DNA of 62,733 bases, the filler included, from Kipferlia bialata (taxonomy: Eukaryota), in the NCBI GenBank assembly GCA_003568945.1. It is 4 parts of 4 records of this genome, joined end to end, with 100 filler letters (N's around TTAATTAATTAA, not from the genome) between each part and the next. Parts side by side here need not be neighbours in the genome. Positions count along the whole stretch, not along the records: positions 1 to 23,271 come from BDIP01000264.1; positions 23,372 to 46,584 come from BDIP01000265.1; positions 46,685 to 55,990 come from BDIP01000321.1; positions 56,091 to 62,733 come from BDIP01000326.1. One strand, written 5' to 3'. The notes beneath the pieces are model-generated. The model ran no database searches, was not told where the DNA came from, and worked only from the letters and a program-made list of their open reading frames with translations. Within the stretch, counting starts at the first letter, position 1. Each line of letters begins with the position of its first letter. This document shows positions 18,275-62,433 of the stretch, piece after piece. Made by a program: the position numbers and the translations under genes.

Positions 18275-19233
18275 GTCACGAGGGTCAAGTTCTCTGAGAA
18301 GGGTGGTACTTTGCATCCATATATATACTCACATATATTTATATATATACTCATTAATGTATATATTCCTATCACGTATATGTATGTAACCCCTTACTGT
18401 AGGTGACCAGGGTCAAGTTCTCTGAGAAGGGTGGTACTTTGCATCTGGCACAGAAGGAGATCAAGATGAAACTGCCATTAGGTAGGATATAGTATATATA
18501 TATATACTCATATGTATATGTATAATGTATAGTGTGTAGATGTTATACTATACTGTATAGAGGGTGGTGCTTTCCATCTGGCACAGAAAGACATCAAGAT
18601 GAAACTGCCATTAGGTATATATTGTTCTATTCATAAGGGTACTGATAATATATGGAATTATAACTTTATATACAAATAAGTACTCTGCACCTGGCACAGA
18701 AGGAGATCAAGATGAAACTGCCTCTAGGTAGGCTATACTATATGATATATACTCATGTGTGTGTATATGTACTGTACAATGTATGCTCTACAAAGTATAT
18801 AATGCAATTAGTATATACAATAGTATCTAGAGATCAAGAAGACACTGTCATTAGGGTGTATATATCGCAGTAGTGCGTATATATATATTGCATGTTGGAC
18901 TGTTATTGCTACTATTTTATGAAGTAATCGTTTGAAATAGTATTTGGCACAGAAAGAGATCAGGATGAAACTACGCATATGTTTGTAAACATGTAGTATT
19001 CAGTAAGTATAGCGTTCACTTCTGCTTAGTGGACTATAGGAAGTTTTAAGGCTTTTACTATCTTAACAACAGGTGCTGATGATGACACCCCTCTGTGCAA
19101 GATAGGGCGGAGACTGTGTGTGCTGTACAGCGATGAGTATGTGATGCACAACCTGGCAATGAGAAGGTATTAGATACATAGTATATCTGCAGGGATCATT
19201 ATATAGCGTGTGTAGCAATGGTGTTCATATTCA

Positions 19234-19268
<35 letters not shown>

Positions 19269-20620
19269 TTTGTGTGTGCTGTACAGTGATGAGTATGTCA
19301 TGCACAACCTGACAATGAAGAGGTATATATGTATATAGATATGTATCTAAATTGGTATATATTGATTCCAGGTCTCAGACCCTCCCAATTGTCAACCCCT
19401 TGAAAGAGTCTGATATATAGTGGGCCAATCTATGTCCATTGCTGTTCTAACTATATATTTATGTCCTCATACCAGGTCTCAGACCCTTCCCATTGTCAAC
19501 CCCTTGACAGAGTTCTGGGCCGACATTGAGCCCATCCCACACCCGACAGACCCCAATAAGGTATATATACACTTTCTAGTAGTATATTGTAATGTATGAT
19601 TGTATTATTAGTGATAAATATTCCATGTTCCATATTTTGTATGTTATACTAAATTGAGTGTGTTGGAATTTAGCCCATCCCACACCCCACAGACCCTAAC
19701 AATATACATGTCCTGCTGTTTAGATATTATTGTCTATCTAGTTATGCATCGGAGTTCCATACTCTTGACAGTGTACATATCTACAATAGAGTCTCATGGA
19801 AGGTTATACAGTTTGGAAAACCTGGGAGCAACACCACGTCCAAGACTGGGAAGAAGGCTGAGAACGTCGAGAGTGTGCTAGAGTTTGATATGCAGACGGG
19901 TATATCAAACTACATATGATATATGTGATCTCACTATTACTAAAACTACTCTGCAATATTATTAATGTATACATACACTATATTGTGTTATACGTGTCAT
20001 ATTGTTTGCTGGAGTTTGATATGCAGACAGGTACATCAAACTACATATTATATATGTGATTCATTCAACTATTACTATTATATGCATATAAATGTATCTA
20101 CTCTATATTATGTATATATATATTGTGTACTGTAGTTTGACATGCAGACTGGTTGGTCTTAGATACACTAGCTCTATGTACATATACTTACTCTATATGT
20201 CATTAGTATTCATTACATATACTATGTGCTGAAGCCCTCTTACCTTTTACCTCTAGGATTTCTCTCTAAACCTTGTGATAGTCTAATATCTAGGAGAAGT
20301 CAACCAGTTATTTCACACCTATATACATATACGAGTATATATATGTGTTTGGATATATGTAAGTGTATTATTATAAACACTACCTCTAGGAGAAGTCACC
20401 CAGCGGCAGTCCATCCCAACCTCTCTGCTGAAGAAGCTAAGGAAGGGATACGGAGATGATAGGAGGTTAGGACATTTTCTCTATCATCCTCACTATATTT
20501 CCATTTGTGTTTATGGTTACCCAGGGGGGACACCGATCCGTTCACTGAGTATGCTGTCTCATCGCCCCTTATCTTCCTCTCTCTCTCTAGAACCGATCCC
20601 TTCACAGATTCGTGTCCCCT

Positions 20621-20655
<35 letters not shown>

Positions 20656-21240
20656 AAAGAACCTAATCCCAAGACGGGACAGCGACCTCTCCCAGATTCG
20701 AGTCTCCTTCTTTGTCTCTCTCTCTTTCAATAGTCTAATCCCAAGATGGAACACCGATCCCTTCACAGAGTACGCTGTCGTTGGAGATGTGTTGCACATC
20801 ATACAGACAAGGTCAGTAAGAATATATATTCATATATATATGTATATATACATATGATAAATACTGTATATAGTACATATATATTACTATGAGCTATCGT
20901 ATCGTGAGAGGTCCTGCACGTCATACAGACCAGGTCAGTATGTGTAGTTATAATATGTGTTTCTCTTCACACTTATAGAGAGAGAAGTGTGTATATAGCA
21001 TTTGGTTGCAAAATCCACTGTATATCTCACTCCTAGTCAGTTCTGGGAGATATCCTTCCACTGGGCGTATAATCTAGTGAAGAGCGATTTCTATGCTATG
21101 GGACCTATTCCCTGTGAGGTAGATATGTATTTATGTGTATACGTATATATATATACACATATAAGGTAGGTAGTAGTCTCTTTCTCGATATCTCTATTTG
21201 GACTAGGTCTCTAATCAATGGGCCCTACTCCCGGTGAGGT
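18275..21240 (+). repeat. Cluster of intronic partial exon copies (echoes)
   Basis: Exon 18403-18481 is copied at 18275-18317, ~18560-18614, 18680-18727, ~18829-18855 and ~18945-18972; most later exons also have copies. Confidence 0.9.
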
Positions 21241-23271: not shown

Positions 23272-23371
23272 NNNNNNNNNNNNNNNNNNNNNNNNNNNNN
23301 NNNNNNNNNNNNNNNTTAATTAATTAANNNNNNNNNNNNNNNNNNNNNNNNNNNNNNNNNNNNNNNNNNNN
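23272..23371. other. Artificial contig linker (N44-TTAATTAATTAA-N44)
   Basis: Six-frame-stop spacer centred in Ns; an identical cassette occurs three times in the window. Confidence 0.95.
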
Positions 23372-23545
23372 CCGTCATTTGCATTTCTAGTTTGTGATAT
23401 TCACAGTTCTCCCCCACCCCCCCCCCCCCCCCCCCCCCTTCCCCTCCTACGTGGCTGCCAATTCTTATTCGCTATTTTGGAGACATTACCTGTCAGGATG
23501 TCACTAGTCACTATTAGAGCATAGACTAGGCCTAATAATAGTAAC

Positions 23546-24544
23546 ATGGCTGACCTACCACTGTGGACAGAGTTTGACTGCCCCACCCCTCTCTCTGTCA
23601 CTCCCTATTACCCCACTGGAGCCATAGAGACTGGACACAACGAGGTACTAGTAAAATCGTCAGATGGACGTGGAGGTTCTAGCCTAGCCCTTGTGCGTCT
23701 ATTGTCCACTGGGTCTATAGTCAAGGAGTTCATTGAGAGACCAGTTTTCAGTTTCAACCCATGCACGTGTAGTGGGGTGTGTTATGGAGGGGAAGTGTAC
23801 ATTTACAATAACTATCGCCTGGATACACTGCACATACTGGACCTGGCTACCCACACCTGGCGGTCAGTGAGTACTACACTTAAGACACACATGGGGAACA
23901 CTTTCGGAGGCTCCAGGAACCTGACGCGGCTACTTTGTGATGAGACTAGTATACTGATAGTGGGGCAAGGGTATGTGGAGGCGGGAAACGGCTGGGCAGA
24001 AGTGAGGGGTGTGTGGAGGTATGACCCTGAGACAGAGGTGATGGAGTGTGTCTCATCGCACACAGATGAATCACGCCAGCCAGACATGGATGGTGCTTTC
24101 ATTGTGGATGGAAGCCCTCACATTGTGGCTGGTATATCCGTGTTCAGTCATAGTATGGATAGTACTCCCACAGGCGGCTGGATTCAAGCGCCTGAGACAG
24201 AGTGTTTTGAGACTGGCGTCCATACATACATTCTACCTGTTACCTTTAGTGGGATGGTTGGCAAGTGCTTCATGTACGGGCCCGTACTCCCTACTCTCAG
24301 TGATCTGTCACTCTTGTGTGCATGGGATACCATATCACACGAGTGGGGGGTGTGGGGGGAGACAGAGGATTATGCCGCTGTCCTGTTCTCTCCCTCCAAT
24401 GTTCTTTGGTACGAAGTCAGGTCTCAGACTGATGTTCAGTCCTGCTACCTGCGTTACCTTGACCCTGGGCTACTGTACCCCCATGAGTCACGGATGTGGG
24501 CCGGTAGTGGTAGACTCTTGGTCCCACACTTGGACGTTGACTAA
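23546..24544 (+). CDS. Intronless divergent Kelch/beta-propeller protein, 332 aa (paralog of 42499-43476)
   Basis: Complete ORF with blade motifs GGEVYIY...LHILDLATHTWRSV, VWRYDPETE and AWDTISHEWG. Confidence 0.8.
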   Translation: MADLPLWTEFDCPTPLSVTPYYPTGAIETGHNEVLVKSSDGRGGSSLALVRLLSTGSIVKEFIERPVFSFNPCTCSGVCYGGEVYIYNNYRLDTLHILDLATHTWRSVSTTLKTHMGNTFGGSRNLTRLLCDETSILIVGQGYVEAGNGWAEVRGVWRYDPETEVMECVSSHTDESRQPDMDGAFIVDGSPHIVAGISVFSHSMDSTPTGGWIQAPETECFETGVHTYILPVTFSGMVGKCFMYGPVLPTLSDLSLLCAWDTISHEWGVWGETEDYAAVLFSPSNVLWYEVRSQTDVQSCYLRYLDPGLLYPHESRMWAGSGRLLVPHLDVD

Positions 24545-24811
24545 TCTATATTAGAGAGTAACTCATAGCTTCTAGTCAACCGCTGAATGATTGAGTTGTA
24601 TGTGTGCAATATTATGTCTGTCCAATAATATAGATCCAGTGAAATAGAAACAAAGTCATTCTCAAGTATTAGTTGTACAATCTATTGAATTAGAAAGAGG
24701 CCTCGTTATAGGCAGTGACTACAGCAGTCACTTGTGCCAGCTGTCTGTTGTTTTGAGCATGCTATACATGCTGAAGGGTTAGTGTTAGTATCAGCATCAG
24801 TGTTTGATCCA

Positions 24812-27800
24812 TCAGCTGTCTGTTCTGAACATGCTGAATGACCCCCCCTCTGTCTCAGAGTTGGCAGGGGTCAGTCTCTCCCTCTCTCCGGTGTTGGCAC
24901 CCTTCTCCTGGGGTTGGAAGGGAGACATATATACTATCACTATATAACAGGTTATATGTATGGTTTGCAAGATAGATGGAGAGTCGGAGGTGCCCAGTGT
25001 TGGCACTATTCACCTAGGGTTAAGAGGAAGAAGATCTATTTTTTGTATTATTGTCTATATTGTGATTGTCTCATACCTTGAGGTACCCTCCGTGGACGTA
25101 CACTCCAAACCCTGTAACGACCAGAATGACAGACACAAGCTGGGGTAAATTAATAACTGATATGGATAATACACTATAGATATTATCACACTTATAGTAC
25201 CCACCTCGTATGTAGTCCATGCCTCCCCATACAGCATGACACACCCTATATCAACATATATATACAGACACATATATATTTACTAATACACTATTAGGCC
25301 TACTTACATACCTTGTACGTGGTCCATGCCTCCCCATAGAGCATGACACACCCTATGATGACAACGACCCTTCTGATCATGTCCACAATGCCTGGGGGGT
25401 GAGATGCATATACATGTAGCTCATAACCTATATAGATACTATATCCGTACCTACAAACAGTGCCGATGCCACCATGCACGTGAGACTTCGAGTATATGTA
25501 CATATAATAATGAACATGTATTAACCAATATCTGAACCTACATATAGAGCTGCACGTGTAGAACTTGAACATATACCAGTATAGACACACTACAATAATA
25601 TAGAATCTATATACTAATATATACATATATTCTACACACATATATATATCCATACCTACAAACACTGAATACAATCAATAATCTATAAATGAGTGGTAGT
25701 GTATCTATATACTTAATGATGTACATGTATATATATATATATCCATACCTACGAACAGCGCCGATGCCAGCATGCACGTGTAGAACTTGAACAGATAGCC
25801 AAGCTGCTTGGACATGGCAACGCCTGAGGCTAAGACAAGGGAAAAGAACAAGAGGGATAACAATTTGACGACATTAAACACAAATACAGCCATCCTACTT
25901 GGCACTGGTATGACTGCAAACAGAGAGGATTATTCACCAGACTACGTAAATTAGAGTGCGCCAGTAAGCAATTTCAAATATAGATATACATAACAAATAG
26001 TGAATATATATATAATACTTGTCTACCTATTGACACTATCCAGTACATGTTGTCTGTGATGTCCCAATCCTGGTTCTCACCTGAGATAAAGGGCGTAGAG
26101 GGAATATAATGGTGTAGATAGGAGGATGAGTCAGCAAGGTGTATAAACATATACATCTGAGGATGTGGGGGATAACAAGGGAAAAGAGGAAGGTGAAGAC
26201 AAGTCATCCCAGACCTGGTTCTCACCTGGGGATGAGGGTGTATGATAGAATTATTAATTATTATCAACAAGTATACAAACACATAAAATATATATTCGTA
26301 TATATGCCACATACCCACGATCCAGGGCATTGGCAGGACCAGCAGGAACGACACGAGACCGTTGTAGAAGGCAGTCTGGGTGACATCCTAATAGTGAGTA
26401 ATAACACTAGTCACATGACATATACACGAGTATACTTGAATACATGGGTATATGAATGAGACCAGACCGTTGTAGAAGGCAGTCTGGGTGACGTCCTGAT
26501 GGTCAGCGTGTGTGATGATCGGAGTTCACTACAATATGTGAAGAGGGGGAGCAAATGAAGGTACTCTAAGAAGACAGTCTGGGTGGTTACGGCTACTGTA
26601 TATATACATATGTATATTATATACCTCCGCCGTCCTCTGGTTCTTGGGCACCCTGGCATCCTCAAACAGATATATATATATATATATATATATATCTATA
26701 TCTATATCTATATCATATACATATACATGTATACTACTATACATATGATATCATACCTACGCCGTCCTCTGGATATTGGGCACCTCGAACAGATATGATA
26801 GATATATTTATGAAATAGATGTAGATGTATAAACAGCAGTTACTACTATACTTCTATATACCTCCGCCGTCCTCTGGTTCTTGGGCACCCTGGCATCCTC
26901 GAACAGCACCTGGGCAAGGCAGGTCTGGAGGGCATCTGGAGTGAGAAGTACAGAAGTACAGAAGTAGAGAAGTAGAGAAGTACAGAATAAATACATATAT
27001 ATATTCATATGAAGCACATAATACATTAGAACAAGGCGAGACAGGTCTGGAGAGCATCTGGGGGGAGGTGGTATATATGTCACTAGAAATGTATATGTAT
27101 TAGGATCATAATACTAAGAAGAATACCATACCTATGAATGTACTGGTCAGGCTGCATACAAAGCTAAATCATAATTATATATATACCATAATTGTATATC
27201 TATATATGTATATAAAAATGGTTCATACCCATACCTATGAATGCACTGGCCAGGCTGCATGCAAATGCCATGGCATACCCAGTGTCCTTGAGGATGGGGT
27301 AGGAGGCGTCCTGATATAAGACATACTTCAACATATATATAATACCGATGTATCAGTCCAACATATGTCAGTGGTGACAAGCCCGATTGATATATGCTCA
27401 TATATATGTGCCCTATATATTTAAGCACTCATCTATATGCGTACATACCTCTGGTTCAAACCCTATGACGCATATGCCAGTGATGACAAGCCCAATTGAT
27501 ATATATATATACATATGAACCATATATATATATATATACGTATACATGTATCTATCTGTATGGGTACAAACCTCTGGTTCAAACCCTATGACGCATATGC
27601 CAGTGGTGACAAGGACAACGGCTATCAGGTTGTGGGGGGTGAACCTGGGTTAGGGGCTGAGAGAAAGAGAGAAACACATACTATGTATAAACCGCATATG
27701 GAAATGTAGGCAAAGGGGAAGAGGCTACTGCACACTTACGCAATTAGAATCAAGTTAGGTGCACGTACTTCATTCCAACCATGACCCTGGACAGAACAAT

Positions 27801-29433
27801 ATACATATACATATATATATATAATATACTACGAGGTAGGGGGTACTCACTTCTTGCCAACCATGATCCTGGAGAGTATAAGGTTGAAGGGGAGGCTGCT
27901 GCTCTTGATGATCATGTACACACTGCCTGAAGTAAGAGTATATACATGTATATATATATGTATATATATATATATATATATATAAGACTACGTATACAAA
28001 CATATATGTTGGGAGGCTGCAGCTCTTGATGATCATGTACACACTGCCTGGGGTGAGTGAATGTGTATACATAAATCATAAGAATACACATTCTATGACA
28101 CATATACTATTCGTAAGTATATACAGAGAAACAGGGGATAAGTGATATGCTCTTGATGATCATGTACACACTGCCTGGGGGTAAGAATATATAAATATAT
28201 GTATATAAGTACTCTACATAGACTATATATATAATGTATACTGTATAAACTCAAATGATCATGTACACAATGTCCGAGACACACACACACATCATATAAA
28301 TATGTGTGTGTGGGGAGGGGGGGGGGGGTGATTGTATATACATATATATATCAGGACTATTATATATATATATCCAATAACACCTGGGAGCGCATTGAGC
28401 CCTATGCTAAGGAGGCTGATGTGGACACCATCCAGGACACCCAGGAAGGTATACCTAGAGTGAGACTATCATATGATAATACAATATATAATACAATATT
28501 GTATATTCCAATTAAACACAAATAATGGTATATGAGATGTGGACACCATCCAGAACATCCAAGGAGGTGTATCGGGGGGTTAAGATATTAGGGTGGATAT
28601 ACTAATACCTGAGATTGAGACACACATATACAAACACATGACATATAGTTACACCACTGAAACAATCTAGAGTCCATACCTGGAGAATATCCTCTGCGAT
28701 TGGAATTATATACGTTTCAGAGGCAGTAAATGACACCACGTGAATATGGAAGATAGACCACCACTACTACCGGCACATGTATACCTGGAGAACATCCTCT
28801 TGAGGTGTGCCACCCACTCAAAGGATGGCTTGTGGTATGTGTTGTCACCACTGATACGCGTGTAGACCTAGGAGTCAGCATATGAATACATGTCCATACA
28901 GCAATATATACAGACCGAATATCTCCTATGAGAATGATACGATACTCTCATACCAGTGATGCTGCATTGGCAGGCCACCCAGCAATATCTATAAATATAT
29001 ATATATATATATATTTTTATATATATGCTATTCGTATGACATATATATATAATACTCGTATGATATGTGTATATACTATCATACCAGTGATGCTGCATTG
29101 ACAGGCCATCCAGCAACACACACACATATATATGATATATATGTCAGCCAGCAATATCTATACTTATATACATATCTCTTATTCGTTTGATATATATAGA
29201 TATATGCTTCGTATGGTATGTCTCCATACCAGTGACGCTGCATTGACAGGCCACCCAGCTATGTATACATCTATATATATATATATCTATCATAATTTAT
29301 ATATAATTATCATATGATGTATACTGTCCATACCAGTGATGCTGCATTGACAGGCCACCCAGCTGTGAGGAACACGGCACCCAGCCAGGGGTAGGAAATG
29401 CCTAGGAGTTAGATGTCAATAGTATAGAATGAC

Positions 29434-30130: not shown

Positions 30131-33100
30131 ATGGTGCTTCAGTACCAGAACCTCTCTGGTGGTGACGGACACACCCATATATACACCCCATTAGACAGTG
30201 ATGGGAGCAGTAGCTCTGAGAGTGAAGGAGAGGGGGTGGTAGGTACACCCCAATCAGGTCAAGAGGGGGAGGGGGAGGGGGAGGGGGTGAGTAGGCTCAG
30301 CAGCAGCATGGCTAGGTGGGTGTTTATACGTAAGTACTCTACCATGTGTAACCACTTGACTATGTGCAAGTGGTCATTCACTGTCTGTATCAATCTAGAC
30401 ACATATTTATATCTATCCACTTCATACTCTGACCCCCAGACACCAGAGGGAACTGACCTCCAACAGATATGTTCTAATATATGTCTATATATACACTATA
30501 TACCTTGTTCTCTCTCTATATATATTCACTGACCCATCAGGCACCAGAGGGAACTGGCCTCCAAGAGAAGAGTGAGGGCAGCACCAGAGAGTGTCAAGGA
30601 GGCAAAGGCGGTACGTTGCATGTCTCCCTCTCTCTCTCTCTCTCTCTCTCTTTCTCCACAACCCCTCACTGTATATAGAGATTGAGATTGAGACAAGACC
30701 TATTGGGGTGTGGTTCAGTGTCTACCCCCCCCCCCAGATGAGTGCCTTTCCTCAGATACTATTCCAAAAATCTATTATATTATCCTATATTAATATATCC
30801 TATATTCTAGTGATACGCTATATACCCACTCACCCGTCAGTTCCTGCGCACATTCATCCCCTACCTGGTATTCCTGGGTCTGTTCATATGTGAGGTATAT
30901 GCCTCCTATCTCTCTCTCTCTCATTCATCCCCCCCCCCTCTCTCTTGGCTACTTCTCTTCTCTCCCCTCTCCCCGCCTCGTGGGCGAGGTTCTATTTGAA
31001 TACACGTTCCCTATGTATCTCTCTCTATCCTTCTGTCTCTGTTTGCGCAACTAGTTATTACCAATATTCACTCCTCTTCTTCTTATATACTACCTCATGT
31101 CCCTCCATCATGTCCCGATAGATGCACTAGTACCCTCCCTCTCTTTCTATGCATATATACTATATGTCGTTATACTACCTTCAGGTCTACATCATGTCTA
31201 GGGACATGCGGCACTTCCAACACCCCCTCCGTTCTCTTTCTATATGTATGTATCTATTAATGTATGTCAATGTATGTACCTAACCCCAGGTCTACATCAT
31301 GTCTAGGGACATGCGGCACTACTACTTCCTGAGGGGGATAGACAATGCAATGTGAGTATAGTATAGCCGTTGAGTCCCTAAAGAGACTATTTAACGCAGA
31401 TGGCAATATTTGTATTGTTGTGCAGTCTCATTATTGTTGCCCTCTCCCCCTAGGTTCGAGAGTACCAATGGATCCCCAGCTGCCAATGTCAAACCATACG
31501 AGGAGATTCCGGTGAGTTCATGAATGCATATACATAATATATTAAACATGTATCAGTTGTTTGTCGAGTCACTAGCCGAGGCAATGACACTATACCGAAG
31601 TGGGTGTCAGATGTCTCTTACGCAAGGGCTTTCCCTCATACTTTACCTCTCTCTCTCTCTCTCTCTCTCTCCACACCTTTTACCTTTAGGACTTTGCCTT
31701 GTACTTTGACTGGCTTGAAAGTCCACTCTTACTTGATAATACTGCTAGTGATAGAGTTGTTACAGTCCATTATACCTTTCTAACCTTAGGACTTTGCCTC
31801 CTACTTTGACTGGCTTGAGGGTTCAGTCTCCACATGGCTGGTGGCAGCAGACTACTACAATGGAGACCCCATCCATGAGGATAACATAGGTGCGTAGTTT
31901 GTTCGGTATAGTTGAGAGGGTGCACTATCTTCTGTATGGATACTCATTACATGCTATGCCCTGCACCAGTCCCCCATTAGTATCTAGAGAGTCAGAGATA
32001 TATGTGACTATGGCGTACATTAACATTGCCTATTGCTTATTGTTTCTAACACTTAGGCTATGCCCTGCACGAGTCACCTATATATATATACAAATATATA
32101 TATATAGTGTATATAGTGTATATATGCATGAGTGATGTATGCATACACATATATACTTATGCCAGGCTATGCCCTGCACCAGTCTCCCATATATTACATG
32201 TCACATTCGTGTATAGTTGTGTATATTGTGTATATTGTTATATACTCTACTTAACCCTTAGGCTATGCCCTGCACCAGTCACCCATCTTTGGAGGACTCA
32301 GACTCAGACAGGTATACATGTATTGTTATATGACAAGACTCAAATGTGAATATCACTACATATGCCTGGATGCATACATCAAGAAAAAAGAAGTGAAGAA
32401 GACTACTGTGCCCTAGCTGATGTTGATGTCTCAGATTGCCACAATAGTATTCATGCAATGGATCTCTCTAGCAGTCCTGTGTACTCACTATAGGTCAGAG
32501 CCACCCAGGAGGACTTCTACTACCCAGACACGGCAGAGGCAATAGGTATTGACTATATACATGCATGTATCATACTGTTTGAATATATATGTGCAGAGTT
32601 CTATCTCCAGACCCGGCAGAGGCAATAGGTATCACCCCCCCCCCACAAACACACACACACTCCCACACACACAAGTGAATCCGTCCATTAGTGACATTGT
32701 TTATGTATGTATTATTTAGTACTACTCTAATATGGCCAGTGCAATCAGGGTGCAAATACGTATTCACATACATTACACATATATATAAATTCCTCAATAA
32801 CCGTCGGCCTGTTAGACCATGTCTTCTACCCCGATGTCAGTGGCAGGGAGCCGCCACTCTCTCTCTCTCCCTATATATATATATACAACATTGTACTGAC
32901 GCTTATACCAGGCCTCCTAGACCATGTCTTCTACCCCGATGTGAGTGGGAGGGGTCACCATGAGGACACTGCCATGCACTGCGGGGTGGAGTGGCAGAGC
33001 GCAGAGGACCTAGGCGGAAAGGTATATTCATATATTCATACAAATATATATTTATTTGCATGTGCATAATAGTGTATGTAGTGTGATATGTATCACACTG

Positions 33101-36100
33101 CGGGTGGAGTGGCAGAGCGGAGATGATCAGAGGGAAAGGTATGGATCTAGGGAATATATATATACCTGTGTATAGTTTCACGCATGGATATGCATTACAC
33201 TGTGGGGTGGAGTGGCAGAGCGCAGAGGAGCTGGGGGGAAAGTTAGAGTACTTACACAAATTATATATGTATATATATGCTCGTATAATTCTTATGATAT
33301 CAACAATATGGTATCACACTGTGGGGTGGCAGAGCGCAGAGGAACTAGGGGGGAAGGTATGTATATATAGTTGTGTGGGGGAAGGTATATATATATATCG
33401 TTGTGTGTATGCTTGTGCAATAGTTTGTCTGTATGTACATACCCCTCACCCCTCAGATCTGGCGTGGCAAGGTTGGCCTGTACCCTGGGAGTGGGTATGT
33501 GGTGGACATTCCCATGGACAGAGTGACAAGTGACAGCATTATCGCACACCTTAAGGAGTGTCTGTGGCTAGATGAGAGTTCCAGACTTTCTGTCCTGGAC
33601 CTGACCCTCTACAACCCAGCGCTGGTATGTACACACTATACACACCATATATGTGTGAGAGTACTCACTATATATTTACAACCCAGCGCTGGTATGTGTG
33701 TACTCTACTATATAGTATTCACTGTATTTATATTATTCACTATACCGTATTCTCAGTACAACTCAGCACTCGTCTGGTCTCTATGTAATTGAAGTGTCCT
33801 TCTCCCTGACGTTAACCTTTGTGTAAGACACAAATCTCAACCCAATACGTAGTCATCCATCTCTATATTTACCCTCCCCCCCAGTGTTCCTTGTGATATA
33901 CATATGTATGTATACATACACACATACATATATATACATCTATATACCCTCATACCCAGGACGTGTTCCTTGTGACCAGGATAGGCATGGAGTTCCCAGC
34001 AGAGGGAGGTAAGGCCTAGACTGTACTATATATGTATACTATATGTATACATATATGTAATTCTTGTGGTCTAATAGTTTATGAAAACGTAAACTGTCTT
34101 CCTAACATAGTGGAATAGAAATGGAGTTCCCAGCAGATGGAGGTGGGTAACAATGGAATTGCATACATATAGATATTATAGTATAGATATTATTTAGGTC
34201 TTTCTGATCCTAGGGTATGTTCCCTTCCACCAATTCAAGGCATAGATATTCACTATATAGTATATCCATTTGAATATGTATATATATATATATATGTCTT
34301 TGTATGGCCTCCTTATCCCAGGCTGTGTCCCCTTCCACCAGTTCAAGACTGTTGATCTCTATCGGTATCTGAGACATTCAGACTGGTTCAGGTTTGTATA
34401 GTCTTTTATATGACAGTAACATCTAGCTTTTTCCCAACCAGAAGTATGTGGGAAGTCGTTCAACCCACATGATGGCCCCTCTCTCACACCTAGGGTATTT
34501 GTCGAAGGCCTAATCTCCCTCTACTTTGTCAAGTTTGCCTTGGATGAGCTCGAGGAGATATGGGTACGTGACGGAACTATCATAGTGTGAATTAACAAGA
34601 GTTTCCTGAAGATGACTCTTAGAGATTGGAGTGTTCCTCACCTCAGGACTGTCTCAGGCAGACCAGCCCCATTCGAGAGTACCAGGACTTCAAACACTAC
34701 TGCAGTGACATATGGAACCTGGTGGACTGGTACGGGTGTTTTCATCTGTCTAGACGTCACATACAGGATATTCTTTTTGATCCTTGTGCCCTTTTACCTG
34801 TATACTGCATACTGACAACCAGGATCAACATCCTTCTCTTTGCTGCCATTGTGGGTATCAATCAATTGCTTGTCTNNNNNNNNNNNNNNNNNNNNNNNNN
34901 NNNNNNNNNNNNNNNNNNNNNNNNNNNNNNNNNNNNNNNNNNNNNNNNNNNNNNNNNNNNNNNNNNNNNNNNNNCATACTGACCACTGACACCTAGGATC
35001 AACATCCTTCTCTTTGCTGCCATTGTGGGCATCAGGGTGCACACAGTCCTAGTTACAAGGGGGCTGATGGAGGTACGGGTGTCAGTATTGTCCGGATTCT
35101 ATATGTATAGCTCCAATAGTGTACGACACCAGGAGATGTATGACTCCTCTTAATAATACTACTGTGACTGTGGTTCTTCTATCAGTGTTCTATCACTCTA
35201 ACCACAGGCTGTGCAGGCTGATGAGACTGCCTATGTCAACTTTGAGCCTGTTGCATACACGATGGTGTACAGAGAGCTATCCTTGGTCGGTGCCCTGTGC
35301 TTCATGACAATGTTCAAGGTGGGTATATATGTTTATATATATATATGTAATATACATAGGCTCCATATATATAGGCTCTGAGTGCCCTGTGCTTCATGAC
35401 AATGTTCAAGGTGGGTTGTGTAATCAATTGCATCCTTAAGAGCATATGCCTGATGACAATGTTCATGGTGTGTATATGTATACATACCTTACCATATGTA
35501 TAATATTTTTCTTCCGTTCTTGTGGCCTGTTTTGTTTACTCTCACCTCAGTCCTTCAAGTTCTTTGCCGCCTCCCCCCGTCTGTCCATCCTGACCAGGTA
35601 TACAATACAATACAATATTGTTCTATATCATAGCGTTAATGGAAGGTGTTAGTAGTATCATCAGTCATCAGTTATGTTGTATTGTAGTCTGTCCATCCTG
35701 ACTAGGTATATGGTACTGTATATATGTATGTATATATACTATACTGTATATATATATACCACTCTGTCCATCCTGACAAGGTGCATAATACTGTATGTAT
35801 GTATATATATATAGTGACCATAAGACCCTCTATAGGTGACAGTAATATAATCAGTCCTCAGTTCTAATGAATACAATGATCTATTTGGTACTGACCATAT
35901 AGGACCATGACAGATGCTGCCAAGGACATTGTATATATATTATGAATAATGATTATTATTATAAGTATATATATATAACTATATACATACTATACATGAT
36001 ACTTATCATATAGGACCATGACCGCTGCTGTCAAGGTCCTTGCTATATACCCATCCATAAATATATAGAGATTAGTATAAGTATATATGCATATATATAT

Positions 36101-50607: not shown

Positions 50608-51412
50608 CTGACGATGAGGGATGAGGGTCAAGGAAGAGGAGAGGGGGGGGGGGGGGGTTGGATGAGGGAGGCAGATATCATACCGTATCCTATCCCCTGG
50701 NNNNNNNNNNNNNNNNNNNNNNNNNNNNNNNNNNNNNNNNNNNNNNNNNNNNNNNNNNNNNNNNNNNNNNNNNNNNNNNNNNNNNNNNNNNNNNNNNNNN
50801 NNNNNNNNNNNNNNNNNNNNNNNNNNNNNNNNNNNNNNNNNNNNNNNNNNNNNNNNNNNNNNNNNNNNNNNNNNNNNNNNNNNNNNNNNNNNNNNNNNNN
50901 NNNNNNNNNNNNNNNNNNNNNNNNNNNNNNNNNNNNNNNNNNNNNNNNNNNNNNNNNNNNNNNNNNNNNNNNNNNNNNNNNNNNNNNNNNNNNNNNNNNN
51001 NNNNNNNNNNNNNNNNNNNNNNNNNNNNNNNNNNNNNNNNNNNNNNNNNNNNNNNNNNNNNNNNNNNNNNNNNNNNNNNNNNNNNNNNNNNNNNNNNNNN
51101 NNNNNNNNNNNNNNNNNNNNNNNNNNNNNNNNNNNNNNNNNNNNNNNNNNNNNNNNNNNNNNNNNNNNNNNNNNNNNNNNNNNNNNNNNNNNNNNNNNNN
51201 NNNNNNNNNNNNNNNNNNNNNNNNNNNNNNNNNNNNNNNNNNNNNNNNNNNNNNNNNNNNNNNNNNNNNNNNNNNNNNNNNNNNNNNNNNNNNNNNNNNN
51301 NNNNNNNNNNNNNNNNNNNNNNNNNNNNNNNNNNNNNNNNNNNNNNNNNNNNNNNNNNNNNNNACAATTTTTTATACAGTGGCCCCCTCCCCCCCCCCCC
51401 CCCCCACCCCAG

Positions 51413-54433: not shown

Positions 54434-55544
54434 CTACTCGGGGCCATCCATGGCGGCCTCTAGCACCATCCCGCCCTGCCTCTCTCTCACCCTATCCTCC
54501 TCCTCCAGCTGGGCTGTGACCTCTCTCTCAATCTCAGCGGCTGCCAGCCTCTCTCTCTCTGCCACGGCCTCTGCCACGGCGTCTCTTTCCTCCTCCTGCT
54601 CCTCAGTGCCCAGAGGGGTGTCTAGGGGGGTGGTCTCCTGGGCCAGGGGGGAGGGGGCAGCAGATATGGTAATGCCTGAGGGCTGGGGGTTAGACACTTG
54701 GGTATGACTAATTTGCAATGGCTTCAAATGTCTGTATCTGGTATTTACCTTCGCCTCTGGCTCCAGCTGAAGGCCCAGCTCTCTACGCCTCGCAGCCTCC
54801 TCCTCGGGTCCCTCTCCCTGGGGGTCAGATAAGGCTACATACAAATAGGTACTAACACGGGCACTCCCAATACAACACATCTCCATTATATACCCACCTC
54901 TGTCCCTAGGGACACGTTGAAGGGCAGCACTGATGGCTTCCTGACGTGCTTGACCCTGACTGGCTTGACCCCACTGTACATGGAGGGGATGCGCAGGAAG
55001 CGGTTGCCTAGAGGTCAGATGAATAGGGACACACCTACTAATTGACTGCCTACACTAAGACCCATATATACCCACATACACCCGTACCTGCCCCGTTGAC
55101 TGTGCCGGCATGCAGCACCCTACCAGAGGGGGTCAGCTCGACAAAGCTGGGGGTGAGACAGAGGGGTGGCAGTGAGAGAGAGAACTCTAGTCGCAGTAGC
55201 GGGAGTATGTGTTCATTGCGAAAAGAATCATATATACACACACCACCACCCACCGTGTGATGCCGTTTGCGTATCCGGCGTAGCAGTCCTCCTGAGCACC
55301 GATGGCAGTGCCGGCGAAGAAGAAGTTGCCATTGAGGAGACGCTGGGCAGCACCTGGGGGTGAGAGAGGGTTAGAAGGGCAGATCGGGAATTGGTGTATA
55401 TATGTGATATGATTGATTCCCTCACCTCCGTAGTACGAGTACCACCCGAGGTCCACGCACAGCACAATCTCAGCCTCCATGGTCTCCTCGTCCAGTCTGA
55501 CCACCATGCCTCTGCTGTTGCCACTCTTGCGGGACTCAGGGCGC
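54434..55544 (-). CDS. Arylsulfotransferase (ASST)-like beta-propeller C-terminus with an acidic tail, 5'-partial
   Basis: NSRGMVVRLDEETMEAEIVLCVDLGWYSYYG|GAAQRLLNGNFFFAG...FVELTPSGRVLH...NRFLRIP resembles the last ASST blades (SR...lDe..m.....yS...GsaQ.L.NGN). Confidence 0.6.
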
Positions 55545-55751
55545 CTGGGGGGGGGGGGGGGGGGGGGGGATACAAATTATAGTGATGACACATTATGAGT
55601 GCGATACACACCTTGAGAGTGAGCAGGGCCACGTTGTGCAACCATAAGTAAAGTAGTATATCACTAGTCACATAATAATATATGGGCGATGCATAGCTTG
55701 AGGGTGAGCGTGAGGTGCATTCATCAGGGTAAGACGTGTGATGCATCATAC

Positions 55752-55827
55752 CTTGAGAGTGAGCAGGGCCACGTTGATGGCATCCTCAAAGTCCATCTCG
55801 GCAGTGTGCCTCTTCTCGAGGAAGGCC
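55752..55827 (-). CDS. PSMA2: Single internal exon of 20S proteasome subunit alpha type-2
   Basis: taacccccag|G GCC TTC CTC GAG AAG...CTC AAG|gtatg = AFLEKRHTAEMDFEDAINVALLTLK, close to the alpha-2 signature FLEKRY...LEDAIHTAILTLK. Confidence 0.75.
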
Positions 55828-55990: not shown

Positions 55991-56090
55991 NNNNNNNNNN
56001 NNNNNNNNNNNNNNNNNNNNNNNNNNNNNNNNNNTTAATTAATTAANNNNNNNNNNNNNNNNNNNNNNNNNNNNNNNNNNNNNNNNNNNN
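55991..56090. other. Artificial contig linker (N44-TTAATTAATTAA-N44)
   Basis: Same cassette as at 23272. Confidence 0.95.
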
Positions 56091-56362: not shown

Positions 56363-57309
56363 GCATCATGTTTGGTCTCCTTGTCCTGGCCGGTGGCTGG
56401 TGGCTCATGGTGCACGTGCTGATGTGAGTGGATAGTATTATATACTGAATATATAGTATGTAGTGTATATAGTGTATGATATATATGTATGTGCTCATGT
56501 ACGTACGAGTAATATTCCCTGCTTCCTCCTTAACTCCCCCTCCCTATTCACTATAGTTACTGCAGGGTCGTCAGTATTATTGTTCCTCTCCCTCTCTCTC
56601 TACACTATTTCCCTCTATATCCTATTCTTAACGCATACCAGGGTATCATAGTGATGATTCTCTCTCTCCCCCACTTTCTCCTTCTCTCTCTCATATTTCT
56701 ATCACTATATATACTAATGTTTAGGGTCCTTGGCATCATAGTGATGTGTCTGTTCCCAGTGCCCATAGTGTATGGTATCATGGGTACGTTATGGACATAT
56801 GTATGTTATGGGTATATGCATCTATATTTGTATGTATGTAGACATTATTTCATACTGGAGGGGTAGAGAGATGAGCCCATAGTGTATAATGTTAGGGTAC
56901 ATTGTTTGTGTATATATACAGCAATAGGTATATGTCTCATACCAGTGTTCCGCAGTGTCAACAGTGCCCCAGACCCCCCCCCTCTCTCTCTCTCTTTCTT
57001 TCTCTGTATATATATGGCCATATATTCCTAATAACAGTCTTCCGCAGTGTCAACAACGCCCCTGACTCCAAGAAGAGCCAGAAGACCAAGAAGGAGGAGG
57101 TATCTATACAGATAGAGTATATATATATATAATAGAGAGAGATAGTAATGCCCCAGACTCCAAGAAGAGCCAGAAGACAAAGGAGGAGGAGGTATCTATA
57201 CAGATAGAGTGTGTATATATATAGAGAGATAGAGAGAAGGAGAGAGAGAGAGAGACTCCAAAAAGAGCCAGAAGACGAAGAATGAGGAGGTATAGAGAGA
57301 TTATATATG

Positions 57310-57345
<36 letters not shown>

Positions 57346-57758
57346 AGGAGAGAGATTACAAGAAGAGCGAGAAGACGAAGAAGGAGGAGGTATGGAGAGT
57401 GTATGTGTCTATGTACGTCAAGCGCAAGCATATCGCTCTTTCCTATGTATCTTAGTATCTAGCATGGGTATTTCCTCGTACCTTGCCCACATGCTTGCTG
57501 TCAATGCTTTATATATATGTATCTCTATCTCTCTCGCCCTCTCTCTCTCTCTCTCTGAATCTATTTGTCTCTCACACCAGTACCTTGCCCATATGCGTGC
57601 TTGTGCATATACTCATATATATATCTATATTTATATATATATGAATGTATATATGTATATATGTAGTGATGGTATGTATCTAACCCTAGTACCTAGCCCA
57701 CATGCGTGCTGTCAATGCTGCCAAGGCAGCTGAGCAGACAGCTGAGGACGCTGTCTAG
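56363..57758 (+). CDS. C-terminal exons of a membrane protein, 5'-partial
   Basis: GIMFGLLVLAGGWWLMVHVL|VLGIIVMCLFPVPIVYGIM|VFRSVNNAPDSKKSQKTKKEE|YLAHMRAVNAAKAAEQTAEDAV*. Confidence 0.6.
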
Positions 57759-58247
57759 AGAGGGAGAGGGAGAGGGAGCGAGAGAGAGAGAGAGAGAGAG
57801 AGTATGTAGTAGTAGTCTGCTGAGCAGACAGCTGAGGACGCTGTATAGAGGGGCTAGAGGGAGAGAGAGGGAGAGAGTATGGAGTAAGCGTACTAGGTCT
57901 AGTAGTCGGTAGTTAGAATTGAAGTGCAGGAATGCACAGACACCGCGTTTCACACGTTCCTCACGTTTCAGACGCTATGGTTAATAATAGAACTCATAGT
58001 ATATTCGTGGAACTGGGATTATTGAATTATCAATATGAGTTCCCTCTTCTCTTAGATACCAAAAGAGAGAAGTAGATATCTAACACCTGATTCTCTCTAT
58101 TCTTCATTGGTACACAAAACAAGTAACAGAAATTGGAAACATACACTGAAAACAACACACTTAAAGAATGTCTGTAATAGGCACTTGATAATAAGGCCCA
58201 TGCTACAGCGACTGCAGCGTCTCAGACGTCTCGGGCGTCTCGACCGT

Positions 58248-59136
58248 TCACACCTCCGGGAACAAGTGCCTGAAGAGTGTTGGGTTGAAGTCTGGGAAAG
58301 ACTTGAAACCTGGGTGTCAGCAACTACACTCATTTGGATAGGAATCAATATAATGAACACATACTGTGCAGAAGTTAACATCCACCGCACTCAGGACATA
58401 GTGTAGTATATATTAGATAGATATAATAGGATATATATAATACAGTTCTCTACAATACACATACAAATTGTATAACATATACATATGTATATAATACCTG
58501 GGCAGTAGTTGACATCCACCACACTCAGGATGTGTTTTGTTAAGAATAGTACAGTATATAATAACAGTATATACAATGAATACATAATGTAGATGTATAT
58601 ATACCTGGGCAGTAGTTGACATCCACAACACTCAGGACACTGGACCCTCCCTCTCCATCTCCCTCTCCCTCTCTATCTCCCTCTGTCTTTCCCTCTCTAT
58701 CCCCCTCTCCCTCTCTCTCTCTATCCCCCTTCCTGTCCAGAATGACATCGATGCCCAGCATGCTGACACTGGAGGTTAGAAATGTGAATATATATACCCA
58801 TAGTGTATTTACATAAAAGCATATATATATGCACATATACATACTTTCATTCATCGGTACCAAGAATGGTGACATCAAAGGACTACTAGTCATAGATATA
58901 CTCATACATACTCACTTTAGCCTGGCCGATAGGGCCAGACACGTCTTCCTAAGGACAGACAGCTCAGCCTGGGGTGAATAATAGGGGGTAGAAGATGAAG
59001 AAAGGGTGTAGAAGGAGAGAGAATAGTCTTCCTAAGGACAGACAACTCAGCCTGGGGTGAATATACTATATATTCACCACACACGCATACATATGGGGTG
59101 CAAGGAGGTATGAAGAGTGAAGGAGGATAGAAGTAG

Positions 59137-59182
<46 letters not shown>

Positions 59183-61316
59183 CACCTCAGACAGGTTGTG
59201 GGGTGTCACTGGGCTGGAGCGCATGAAGGACTGGGGGTAAGGGTAGATAAGGGAACCATATTCAATAAGAAAATACACATATTCCATATATATATATCTA
59301 CTCACTATTACTATATACTCACTACTGTTATACACAATACACATATATATATCTGGAGCACATGACGGACTGGGTACAAGGGAGGGATAACATATACGTA
59401 TCATAAGTGCGTACTATATATACAGATATTACCTACAAAGATATGGAGGGCAAGAATGATAGGGAGTATGGGGGTAGACTCTAAAAGAAATAGATGATAG
59501 TGGGAAGAACACAGAGGTCAAGGCAAATTAATATTCAATACATATTACACATATAGAATATTCATATAGAAAATATATGTACCTGACTGTTGAATGGGAC
59601 AGTGTCCACAGCAGGGTCAGAGAGTGATATATAATGTTACATGAACTCATAAAATAATACATTATAAGTGTAAGTTGTCTATATAGTCATTGTTATAGTG
59701 TCAATTAAGTCTCATACTGACCTGACTGTTGAATGGCACAGTGTCCACAGCAGGGTCAGACAGAGTGCGGACTAGGGCCTGGGAATAAGGGCGTAGAGGG
59801 AATGCAAATCAAAAATATGGTATCCCGTACCTGTACTGGCTCTGACACGTCTCCGCATATCACGTGCATACATGGACATATATATATATAAGTGTGTGTG
59901 TATATATACATACATATATTGCTTACACTTATACACTCTATGTATACCTGCACCGGTTCTGACACGTCTCTGCATATCACGTGCATGGAGTCACCGATCA
60001 TATAGACCTAAGAATGAGGGGGTAGCAATCTAATTGAGGGTGTATACTCAGGGTGTATAATGGTGTAGTCCATGAATTGGCAAATGGGAAGGAAATAGAT
60101 GTAAACTAATTTCTATATCTGACAACACTCTCACACCTTGTACACTGTGCTGTTCAGTAGGAAGGGCATGAATAAGGGTGTAGCACAAGAATATGGGTGT
60201 ATAGGTGCAACTGCTTATAGTACAGTAAGATCAAATAGAATATATATATATACCTTGTACACTGTGCTGTGCAGTAGGAAGGGCATCGCAATGACAGCCT
60301 CCCTGCACCCTTTATCCTCTGTGCTAGACCCTTTATCCACTAGGGAGAGAGAGGTGTCGGCGGCACAGAGCTGCAGACTGGGTCTGAGTGGAAATTAAAT
60401 AAACACGCATACATTCAGATATGCATATATATACCCATTTAGATGGAGAGCTGCCTACACTACAATAAAATAGGTATAATAATTAATATTGGCAATAATT
60501 ATTAACATATACAATATATTCTACATGCACTATATATATACCTGTGACTGATGCTGGGCCCACAGCCCCAGAAGGGCAATATATATATGTGTATATATGT
60601 AAATGTATGTAAATAGTAATAATGTATTTATGCATATATGAACTATACATATATATATAGTACCTGTGACTGATGCTGGGCCCACAGCCCCAGAAGGGCT
60701 TGAGGATGGTGATGCCTGAGTGTAAGGGTGAAGAGGGAGATCAATATGGTATACAAAGAGAAGCTAAGAATAATAGATTTTATGAAAACACTGGTGAACA
60801 TAGAACAATGGGTGGGTGAACGAGCCCATGAAAGTTGAGAAGTGTCCGAATCATACCTCTGAGTTATCATTATATATGTATTTATACAATAAGTAATATA
60901 CATGCCTGGGTATGGCAGGTTGACATAAGGTATATGTGAATTCATATACTCATATACAAATACTATTCATATGTATACATAAATATATGTATATATTAAT
61001 ATATTTATACACATATATACTAATGTATATATACTAATGTAAATATATATACACATATATACCTGGGTATGGCAGGTTGACTAGAGGGGGTGTGGAGACA
61101 GACACACCACTATCTCTCTCCCCCTCTACACCCCTATTCAGGGTCTGTGACACATCCTGGACAACATCAGACAGGACTGTCGACATGTCCCTCCTGATGG
61201 TTAGATAAGTATACATTTATACACATATATATATATACATATATACAATATATATACTTATACACAATACAGACAGTACAGTGGACATGTCCCTCCTGAG
61301 AGTTAACAATATACAT

Positions 61317-61347
<31 letters not shown>

Positions 61348-61860
61348 GATATATTGTATACTCATATGAACTGCAATATATATATGCAATAGTAACATGA
61401 CGACATCAGACAGGACAGTCGACATGTCTCTCCTGACAGGGTTAGATTCACAGCAATCTACACTTAGATTGTATATATACATATTAATCATAATAAGATA
61501 AATTATAGAGGACAGTGGACATATCTCCCCTTAAGGCTATATATGCATTTATAAATATGCACATATATATAATTCATATTCTACTACCCAGGCACATGGA
61601 CGATCTGGTAACATATGGTGGATATGCATATATGTTCCATAGAGAATGTAAATTCATACCTATCCAGGAAAGGCTTCACACTCATGACTGGGTCCAATAC
61701 CCTGATGCCCGGCTGGACGGACAGACAGTGGGAGAGGTCAGACAGGAGGTCCCAGTCAATACCTGATATAAGGGTGTAGAGAGAGAGAGAGAGAGAGAGA
61801 GAGAGGCAGTAGTAGAGGTCAGACAGGAGGTCCCAGTCAATGCCTATGGTTGGTACTATT

Positions 61861-61893
<33 letters not shown>

Positions 61894-62433
61894 AACCTTC
61901 CTCTGGCAGACTGATGGTACAGGGGGATAGGAACATATATATATATATACATATATATATATGTATATACATACTCACCCTCCTCTGGCAATTGAGACAC
62001 TGGTGGGTGCTGCCTGGGGTTCTCTCCCTTGACCAGTGCTGACACATCTTCTTGACTCTCAATGACCCCTTGACTCTCCTTGACCCCTTCTGTTGGGGAG
62101 GGAGGGCGAGTCACCAGGGCAGGTTGGAACACCCAGTCAGTCACCTAGAGGGGTAAGAGCGTTTGAGACGTTTATGGGTAACAAACTTGTAGGCTGGAAC
62201 ACCCAGTCACTGACCTGTAGGGTAGGTAGACTATGGATAATTACACATACACATAGAACACATATTGCAAAGATATTTGAACATGATTATACCTTCTGCA
62301 TCACGACATCACCCCTCCTCAGCATGACTCCTCTGCCTCTTCTCTCTCTCTCTCTCTCATCCCCTCTCCCCCCTTCTCTCTCCCTCTCCAGGTGCTGTCT
62401 GATAAGTGACTCTGGGGTCCTCACATGCATAAC
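58248..62433 (-). CDS. ITPK1: Inositol 1,3,4-trisphosphate 5/6-kinase (ATP-grasp), multi-exon; 5' end uncertain or partial
   Basis: DVVMQK|VTD, IRVLDPVMSVKPFLDR, KPFWGCGPSISH, AMPFLLHSTVYK|VYMIGD, VPFNSQ and MLGIDVILD...VVDVNYCP|GFKSFPDF follow the ITPK1 motif order (D...HK..D, v.DP...R, KP...SH, QeF..H...KVYvvG, FgiDvi...viDiN.fPG). Confidence 0.85.
58370..62220 (-). repeat. Cluster of intronic partial exon copies (echoes)
   Basis: Most ITPK1 exons have 1-3 partial copies in the flanking introns (e.g. ~58495-58530, 59580-59620, 59828-59870, 60540-60577, 61400-61445). Confidence 0.9.

Follow-up and report, generated by a model that had tools for sequence, protein, structure and literature searches.

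Direct repeats laid over exon-intron boundaries are known from amphioxus, where they are called "mirages". In the passages that describe them (PMC3087553, PMC3902484) they are reported one gene at a time: units measure 10-160 bp, splicing is normal and the copies of a cluster evolve in concert. The whole units of the mirage BflGb6 are 81-100% identical, and length polymorphism is a hallmark of these repeats. A 37-bp minisatellite in intron 7 of the human F7 gene has its first unit over the boundary of exon 7, and the most upstream of its identical donors is chosen, according to a passage of PMC1557585. The Rogers model, as outlined in parts of four papers (PMC3265369, PMC4974935, PMC2891723; PMC3087553), creates or slides introns by tandem duplication of an AGGT-containing segment. 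This analysis concerns 62,733 nt of DNA ("the window") from Kipferlia bialata (GCA_003568945.1), in which introns contain partial copies of the adjacent exon edges. Such a copy is called an "echo"; its exon-derived part is the core, and the intron part between cores is the spacer. Repeats of this kind are known, and those of Kipferlia are a densely packed and degraded form of them, which most likely arose through small duplications and is tolerated as their by-product. The initial annotation of this DNA knew of no description of the pattern, but it is not undescribed: the amphioxus mirages and the F7 minisatellite are of the same kind. No account of such repeats across a genome, in a protist or at the density seen here was found in a literature search judged by titles and the first lines of abstracts, with subscription journals outside it.

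K. bialata is a free-living fornicate metamonad and a relative of Giardia. The passages of its genome paper (PMC5874029) give 51.0 Mb, 17,389 genes and 124,912 GU-AG introns, and present it as the one intron-rich fornicate, used to argue for intron loss in Giardia and relatives; these passages do not mention repeats of this kind, and the main text lacks the word "tandem". It keeps 87 of 174 surveyed spliceosomal proteins, according to part of PMC6679479. The window joins parts of four records, with 100-N fillers between them: BDIP01000264.1 (1-23,271), BDIP01000265.1 (23,372-46,584), BDIP01000321.1 (46,685-55,990) and BDIP01000326.1 (56,091-62,733).

The repeats were detected by comparing the window with itself (blastn, word 9, E<=0.01), and pairs with an offset of at most 1500 nt were counted as local. 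There were 69 local direct pairs and no local inverted pair, and only 7 distant pairs (3 direct, 4 inverted) across the 62.7 kb. Each of 10 shuffles within 100-nt blocks, which keep the local composition, gave 0 direct and 0 inverted pairs. The direct-repeat fragments of exon edges claimed by the initial annotation are therefore real and far beyond chance. The offsets are concentrated at 100-150 nt (35 of the 69 pairs) and 200-250 nt (11 pairs). The pairs cluster at 18-37 kb and 55.6-62 kb, with one at 12.5 kb and none at 38-54 kb. At 18-22 kb, GC-rich exon-like blocks lie amid TA-rich DNA and pieces of the blocks return every 104-156 nt. Tandem Repeats Finder (TRF) recognises only six arrays, with periods of 81-131 nt, and in most repeats only the GC-rich part can be aligned.

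Exons were defined by a gene model that combines codon log-odds, a donor matrix trained on window coordinates and a branch-point rule (3-9 nt before the AG), with masking of exons that partially copied a neighbouring exon. Exon coordinates beyond the one RNA-covered gene are predictions of this model, which reproduced 6 of 7 RNA-bounded internal exons exactly and 7 of 7 donors. Echoes were surveyed in the 58 N-free introns of five genes, at 18.4-24.5 kb (+), 25-29.4 kb (-), 29.7-32.3 kb (+), 32.5-37.7 kb (PKD2, +) and 58.1-62.4 kb (-); a sixth gene at 56-58 kb was left out of the count. Among the gene names first proposed, PKD2 and Kelch are supported by Pfam, PKD2 through a Polycystin_dom match (E 9e-12) in exon 33457-33624, which follows exon 32912-33021. 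The names PUP-like, PSMA2 and ITPK1 are not supported, single exons having given no match at E<=0.05.

The survey found 67 echoes, 45 on the donor side, copying the 3' edge of the upstream exon, and 22 on the acceptor side, copying the 5' edge of the downstream exon; the reverse-complement control of the search gave 0 matches. Their polarity was measured with non-overlapping exon halves as probes. Matches of the right polarity occurred in 52 of 102 tests and of the wrong polarity in 1 of 102, with 2 of 408 in introns of other genes, as the polarity seen by eye had implied. The copies also carry splice sites. On the donor side 38 of 45 extend to the splice position and 32 of these 38 retain GT, while 20 of 22 acceptor-side copies extend to the exon start and 14 of the 20 retain AG.

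The repeat period has a median of 113 nt (interquartile range, IQR, 104-127.5), and 58 of 67 values fall within 80-140 nt. It is made up of 9-54 nt of exon (median 31, IQR 25-37), close to the 20-55 nt first estimated, and a spacer of 83 +/- 23 nt. Echoes enlarge introns. Intron length is fitted by 121 nt plus 106 nt per echo (r = 0.82), and an echo is present in 33 of 41 introns of at least 160 nt but in only 2 of the 50 that are shorter. The median length of introns without an echo is 97 nt. Donor-side echoes outnumber acceptor-side echoes 45:22 by copies (p = 0.007) and 27:16 by introns (p = 0.13). Decoy acceptors upstream of an exon may be less tolerated. Three exon chains, at 38-43.5 kb, 43.8-46.4 kb (dynamin) and 54.4-55.8 kb, have no echo in 33 introns; these are 3 of the 8 multi-exon genes.

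The echoes are probably by-products of head-to-tail duplications of about 90-135 bp, likely each over one exon-intron junction. Nine arrays align over the whole unit. Their exon-derived part is 0.914 identical over 631 columns with 17 gap nt, and their spacer part is 0.829 identical over 814 columns with 217 gap nt. Thus the spacers of these arrays are copies of one another, scrambled mainly by indels. A tandem, junction-spanning origin is shown for these nine arrays and, by extension, is likely for the remaining units. Among the explanations that the initial annotation listed, it is the only one that predicts the 52:1 polarity.

A duplication that runs from within an exon into the adjoining intron would place an extra exon edge and its splice signal inside the intron, and the message would stay intact only if the outermost site were in use. 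Since the outermost site must be used, copies of a 3' edge would survive only downstream of their exon and copies of a 5' edge only upstream, so that message-preserving survival would produce the polarity without a special mechanism. Because ordinary introns (about 97 nt) are shorter than the unit, almost any tolerated duplication would include a junction. The TA-rich intron part of a unit would then be scrambled quickly by indels, as is seen where units still align, and the GC-rich core would probably be re-homogenised at times with the real exon by short-tract gene conversion. Splicing uses the first donor and the last acceptor in the one gene followed in RNA; decoy donors stay strong but silent, and most decoy acceptors lack an adjacent branch point. 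We take the echoes to be without function.

Duplicated exon edges could also arise if an exon edge received an insert of new TA-rich, intron-sized DNA, either break-repair filler or introner-like, and 20-50 nt of the target site were duplicated in the process, in which case the spacers would never have been copies of one another. Introners are transposon-derived introns of some algae, fungi and dinoflagellates, and they form sequence families with short target duplications. Several observations fit an insertion: most spacers are no more alike than unrelated introns, homology stops within about 10 nt of the junction, the spacers (83 +/- 23 nt) are close to plain introns (median 97 nt) in size, and cores of 97-100% identity may have unrelated flanks. 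The aligning spacers of the nine arrays (0.83, with many indels) are nevertheless impossible under insertion, and TRF calls six tandem arrays. No mobile family is visible either, as the spacers of different introns share no family likeness and the window holds 7 distant pairs and no local inverted repeats; introners are not known to have target duplications of 20-50 nt. Insertion is therefore improbable. A tandem duplication of whole exons, followed by decay of half of each extra copy, would account for the period, since a short exon together with some of its intron could well measure about 113 nt (exon medians are 70-134 nt per gene). Random decay would leave either exon end on either side, though, and 52 against 1 was observed; the cores, moreover, all start from the junction and vary continuously in length, from 9 to 54 nt. 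Whole-exon duplication is very improbable.

Three further candidates were rejected. RIP-like mutation is ruled out by the duplicated cores being the GC-rich part, and cDNA-derived copies by donor-side cores that continue in GT and intron-like DNA, not in the start of the next exon. A fixed ruler does not set the unit, core and spacer length being only weakly anticorrelated (r = -0.23, p = 0.09).

Cores and spacers have diverged to very different degrees. The cores are on average 0.91 identical to the parent exon. Gapped identity between spacers is 0.66, compared with 0.64 for control spacers of different introns, and stays at 0.65-0.66 in every class of core identity. The initial description of the spacers as unalignable by eye holds for most of them, 11% of 65 adjacent pairs lying above the 95th percentile of the control. 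Among the cores that are at least 0.95 identical, 1 of 13 has a spacer above that percentile, and cores of 34-37 nt at 100% identity occur with unrelated flanks. Core identity is not lower with distance from the parent, and in several arrays the outermost copy is the closest to it. Spacer GC is 0.30, compared with 0.40-0.45 for the introns of echo-free genes, and TA runs make up 8-14% of the bases of long introns as against 2-6% in short introns of echo-free genes. The ages of cores and spacers are thus decoupled. Fast indel decay of the spacers alone is a poor explanation for this; gene conversion over short tracts, with the parent exon and its copies as partners, would fit. Gene conversion, which had been listed as a possible explanation, is likely to be involved; its part appears to be a secondary homogenisation of the cores, not the purpose of the repeats.

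The echoes appear to drift neutrally. At sites under at least two echoes, changes private to an echo number 17, 16 and 23 at codon positions 1, 2 and 3, and changes private to the parent number 0, 0 and 4. Across the 64 cores, 4 changes create a stop codon and there are 5 indels. The frequency at which GT and AG are kept does not differ from 0.83, the value predicted by an identity of 91% (p = 1.0 and 0.13), and the loss of these dinucleotides in echoes is at the neutral rate.

The fate of echoes in a message was followed in the gene at 25-29.4 kb, the comparison with RNA and DNA contigs covering 23372-27501. The sequencing run behind the RNA contig has no RNA on record, and the contig was recognised as RNA from its placement on the window. 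It is 1321 nt long and lies on 24702-27490, and each of its 8 joints reads GT..AG on the minus strand. Only because the compared stretch ended at 27501 did the eighth joint fall on the copy at 27449-27490; the loose end of the contig resumes at 27614, within the body of the exon, which makes 27572-27644 the real exon. Six surveyed introns bounded by joints (172, 357, 203, 234, 474 and 299 nt) contain 10 echoes, all of them skipped, and a 261-nt intron with indirect support contains 2 more. The first donor and the last acceptor were used. The gene has seven echo donors with GT, six in joint-bounded introns and one in the indirectly supported intron, and all are unused in the contig; the skipped donors of the joint-bounded introns score 5.7-9.0 and the real ones 6.2-9.1. 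Of the two fates first suggested for the decoy splice sites, to be ignored or to be used by the spliceosome, this transcript shows the former.

Echo donors are as strong as real donors over the whole survey (median score 5.6 vs 5.3), and 24 of 32 reach the lower quartile of the real ones. Acceptors differ, the branch-point/AG configuration being present in 6 of 20 echo acceptors and 51 of 60 real acceptors. The intact acceptor echo at 26207-26228 lies 89 nt from the donor and was skipped nonetheless, perhaps through recognition across the exon. Recursive splicing, another of the proposals of the initial annotation, finds no support: 25 of 32 echo donors read AG|GT, and a working acceptor grammar is present at only 1 of these 25, so they are not ratchet sites. 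A plausible acceptor 10-120 nt upstream is found for 7 of 32 echo donors, with a length divisible by 3 in only 1 of the 7. In real acceptors of the window (25077-62144) a CTNAC-like branch point precedes the AG by only 3-9 nt, a rule that 51 of 60 pass. This fits the fused branch point/3' splice site described, in part of PMC6679479, for diplomonads and parabasalids, the parasitic relatives of K. bialata.

These signals bear on whether echoes are retained for splicing, as ends of alternative or cassette exons, as recursive sites or as binding sinks. The strength of the echo donors, the better preservation of cores than of spacers and the enrichment of pooled differences at third codon positions are all as expected for functional decoys. 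The assembled transcript omits every one of the 10 echoes in the six verified introns, however, and the even spread of changes over codon positions, the stops and indels in cores, the neutral loss of GT and AG, the scarcity of acceptor grammar and of in-frame upstream acceptors, and the staggered core lengths inside arrays all point the other way. Such a function is quite improbable.

A DNA contig of 3228 nt at depth 396 has 0 differences to 23452-26598, so that a separate assembly of reads reproduces the repeats. Pointer-like deletion of DNA, also raised at first, finds no support in this contig, which retains the echoes at full depth. Six DNA joints were seen, with sides of only 20-22 nt in TA-rich repeats, and contigs may miss rare deleted forms. 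An assembly or library artefact would have some footing in a short-read draft with N gaps, homopolymers at contig ends and a repeat period near a read length. The copies differ from the parent by about 9% and stand in unique flanks, the DNA contig matches over 3.1 kb (though possibly from the same data), and the joints of the RNA contig agree with the order of exons; an artefact is hardly credible.

Several points weigh against junction duplication followed by gene conversion and neutral drift. The tandem origin of most units is an extrapolation from the nine arrays: the 11% of adjacent spacer pairs above the percentile of unrelated spacers amounts to no significant shift (Mann-Whitney U, p = 0.14), and ungapped identity drops to the control level about 10 nt from the junction into the intron. 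Neither the unit size of about 113 nt nor the echo-free state of three neighbouring genes (33 introns) is explained. Gene conversion is deduced, not demonstrated: with a mean identity of 91%, chance alone would yield roughly one core of 34-37 nt at 100%, a number that the three observed do not greatly exceed. Differences between core and parent are 2.8-fold more frequent at third codon positions (89/661 vs 64/1338; 95% interval 2.1-3.8), slightly more than the maximum of 2 for a neutral echo and a constrained parent, which is a loose end. Gene models other than that of the RNA-covered gene are our own predictions. Evidence from RNA comes down to a single gene and a single assembled contig, and low-level use of decoys is possible because contigs lose rare isoforms. 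The DNA run may be the same data as the window assembly.

A wider proposal is that introns of K. bialata grow, and perhaps are born, by a genome-wide stream of junction duplications of about 110 bp whose cores are kept by gene conversion with the real exons. We regard this as possible but doubtful. If it were true, intron length would be quantised in modules, and very many intact decoy donors would be ignored by a half-sized spliceosome through a first-donor/last-acceptor rule. Part of the 124,912 published introns and the richness inferred for the fornicate ancestor would then need re-examination, because gene finders readily call echoes exons; counts of exons and introns could be inflated, since echoes resemble short exons. 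A first gene model based on composition only took echoes for exons 40 times in the window, with 21 plus-strand and 19 minus-strand cases. Introns would also be seen to turn over and to be actively remodelled, 33 of 41 long introns here containing exon-edge modules, and dozens of natural decoys would offer a ready-made experiment on splice-site choice where the spliceosome is reduced and the branch point is fused to the 3' splice site.

Table 1. Positions of echoes, parent exons, repeat arrays and echo-free chains, counted along the window
Feature	Position	Strand	Details
Acceptor-side echo of exon 18403-18481 (intron end, AG, first ~43 nt)	18268-18317	+	96% identical to 18396-18445, offset 128
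Predicted parent exon, 3' edge echoed four times downstream	18403-18481	+	gene model
Four donor-side echoes in a 591-nt intron	18561-18617, 18680-18737, 18830-18864, 18942-18972	+	identities 0.93, 0.91, 0.83, 0.90; spacings 133, 113, 127, 126
Donor-side echo of exon 19073-19166	19271-19326	+	0.91 identical; 309-nt intron
Acceptor-side echo of exon 19476-19560	19365-19409	+	0.91 identical; same 309-nt intron as 19271-19326
Tandem array over a donor junction, spacers alignable	19873-20153	+	period 131, 2.2 copies; TRF and whole-unit alignment
RNA-verified exons	25077-25139, 25312-25391, 25749-25823, 26027-26080, 26315-26387, 26862-26935, 27235-27310	-	RNA contig
Donor-side echo in a 172-nt intron, spliced out	25203-25249	-	0.91 identical, GT kept, donor score 6.2; joint 25139 to 25312
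Three donor-side echoes in a 357-nt intron, spliced out	25440-25482, 25551-25575, 25644-25664	-	joint 25390 to 25748
Acceptor-side echo with intact branch point and AG, unused	26207-26228	-	score 6.0, equal to that of the real site; joint 26078 to 26313
Acceptor-side echo in a 474-nt intron, spliced out	26454-26506	-	joint 26386 to 26861
Two donor-side echoes in the 474-nt intron, spliced out	26618-26669, 26753-26784	-	outer 98%, inner 91% identical; joint 26386 to 26861
Acceptor-side and donor-side echo in a 299-nt intron, spliced out	27035-27067; 27126-27162	-	joint 26935 to 27235
Array: 3' edge of parent exon 27572-27644 and two echoes, spacers alignable	27362-27613	-	period ~109-122; repeat and whole-unit alignment
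Donor-side echo array	28942-29364	-	period 131; 342-nt alignment at 70%
PKD2: three donor-side echoes (33096-33142, 33198-33245, 33321-33368) with the 3' edge of their parent exon, 32912-33021	32977-33368	+	
PKD2: two donor-side echoes	35382-35477	+	first with 100% parent identity over 35 nt, flanks unrelated
PKD2: array	36343-36729	+	period 119, 3.3 copies; TRF; outermost copy 100% over 37 nt, inner 0.89 and 0.87
Arrays of the 56-58 kb gene, within 56940-57907	57058-57393; 57729-57907	+	period 92, 3.5 copies; period 90; TRF
Gene at 58.1-62.4 kb: 12 echoes in 11 introns, span 58353-62222	e.g. 58485-58530, 59581-59624, 60135-60169	-	
Gene at 58.1-62.4 kb: further echo examples	60531-60577, 61264-61447, 62191-62222	-	
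Contrast: predicted exon chain 38-43.5 kb (+) and dynamin gene 43.8-46.4 kb (-)	38061-46449	+ and -	27 introns, 0 echoes; 23/27 <160 nt
Contrast: gene with 6 introns of 66-140 nt	54438-55827	-	0 echoes at threshold; one 27-nt repeat pair 55610/55750

AG/CT-type microsatellites occur in or beside several of the arrays (57757-57802, 58647-58730, 59140-59180, 61778-61805), and the arrays at 57.1-57.4 kb are among those in which they replace TA runs as spacer filler. The 474-nt intron of the RNA-covered gene also contains a GC-rich, non-repeated 80-nt block with a good acceptor at 26498-26578 (-), which is absent from the RNA contig and may be either an exon of alternative use or a relic.

The GC-rich first 11 kb of the window are almost echo-free. 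They contain three long open reading frames, 1668-3932 (-) of 755 aa, 6845-9160 (+) of 772 aa and 9635-11110 (+) of 492 aa, none of which matches Pfam; for the one of 772 aa the protein atlas offers no usable neighbour. They may be lineage-specific genes. Rfam and tRNA scans gave no match. Weak Kelch matches occur in two large terminal exons, 23543-24508 (+) and 42496-43470 (+), which are paralogous to each other at 37% identity over 322 aa (E 2e-52). The two chains, at 18-24.5 kb and 38-43.5 kb, share only this terminal Kelch exon, their upstream exons being unlike. The gene at 43.8-46.4 kb has Pfam matches to Dynamin_M and Dynamin_N. Its middle-domain exon, 44789-45685 (-), matches residues 91-389 of a K. 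bialata protein of 598 residues at 100% identity, and an exhaustive HMMER search among 1.84 billion representatives found only 5 proteins at E<=0.001. The best three matches are all from K. bialata, the protein itself and two paralogs at 35-37% identity; this dynamin family is very divergent. Homopolymers (C x40, C x27 and G x51, at 17213-17252, 18017-18043 and 46685-46735) abut N gaps. The N runs are 17254-18001, 23272-23371, 46585-46684, 50701-51363 and 55991-56090, and three gaps have the form N44, 12 bases, N44. The homopolymers and N44 gaps look like scaffolding or sequencing artefacts of contig ends, not biology.

Compared with known systems, the Kipferlia introns resemble introners in having gained sequence in units of about 100 nt between duplicated host sequence. 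They differ from them in the lack of family likeness among spacers, which across the introns of the window are alike in composition only, and in the length of the duplicated host sequence, 9-54 nt. With the Rogers model, in the parts of those papers cited above, they share a small tandem duplication that carries splice signals and is rescued by splicing. In that model duplications inside exons create introns, whereas those in Kipferlia straddle existing junctions and lengthen introns, and no clear case of a new intron was found in the window. The likeness to F7 intron 7, as described in the passage of PMC1557585, is in the order of sites, an authentic donor followed by silent, functional-looking pseudo-donors, with the most upstream donor used. 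The F7 repeat occupies one locus, its unit is short and perfect, and it copies donors alone, while Kipferlia has many loci, a longer degenerate unit and acceptor copies as well. Scanning as the mechanism was demonstrated in mammalian cells; for Kipferlia it is an analogy only.

The closest likeness is to the amphioxus mirages, as far as the passages on them go (PMC3087553, PMC3902484). Both are direct repeats whose unit lies over an exon-intron boundary and includes the splice signal, and both involve 5' as well as 3' boundaries. Unit sizes overlap, with 60, 108 and 150-160 bp in amphioxus and about 113 in Kipferlia. Regular splicing is undisturbed, which in Kipferlia was seen for the RNA contig of one gene, and concerted evolution, reported in amphioxus, would apply to Kipferlia as well if the cores are homogenised as proposed. 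Whole units are alike in nine Kipferlia arrays and otherwise not (0.66 vs 0.64): the intron part can be aligned in about one ninth to one sixth of the units, leaving a ladder of cores in unrelated-looking TA-rich spacers. Amphioxus is an animal with long introns and Kipferlia a metamonad protist with introns of about 97 nt; the described mirages belong to a few single genes, and the 67 copies here lie in 58 introns of five neighbouring genes. The finding extends an existing idea rather than founding a new one. What is distinctive here is more than one copy per intron in five neighbouring genes, quantised intron lengths, cores kept while spacers are lost, and a host with short introns and a reduced spliceosome.

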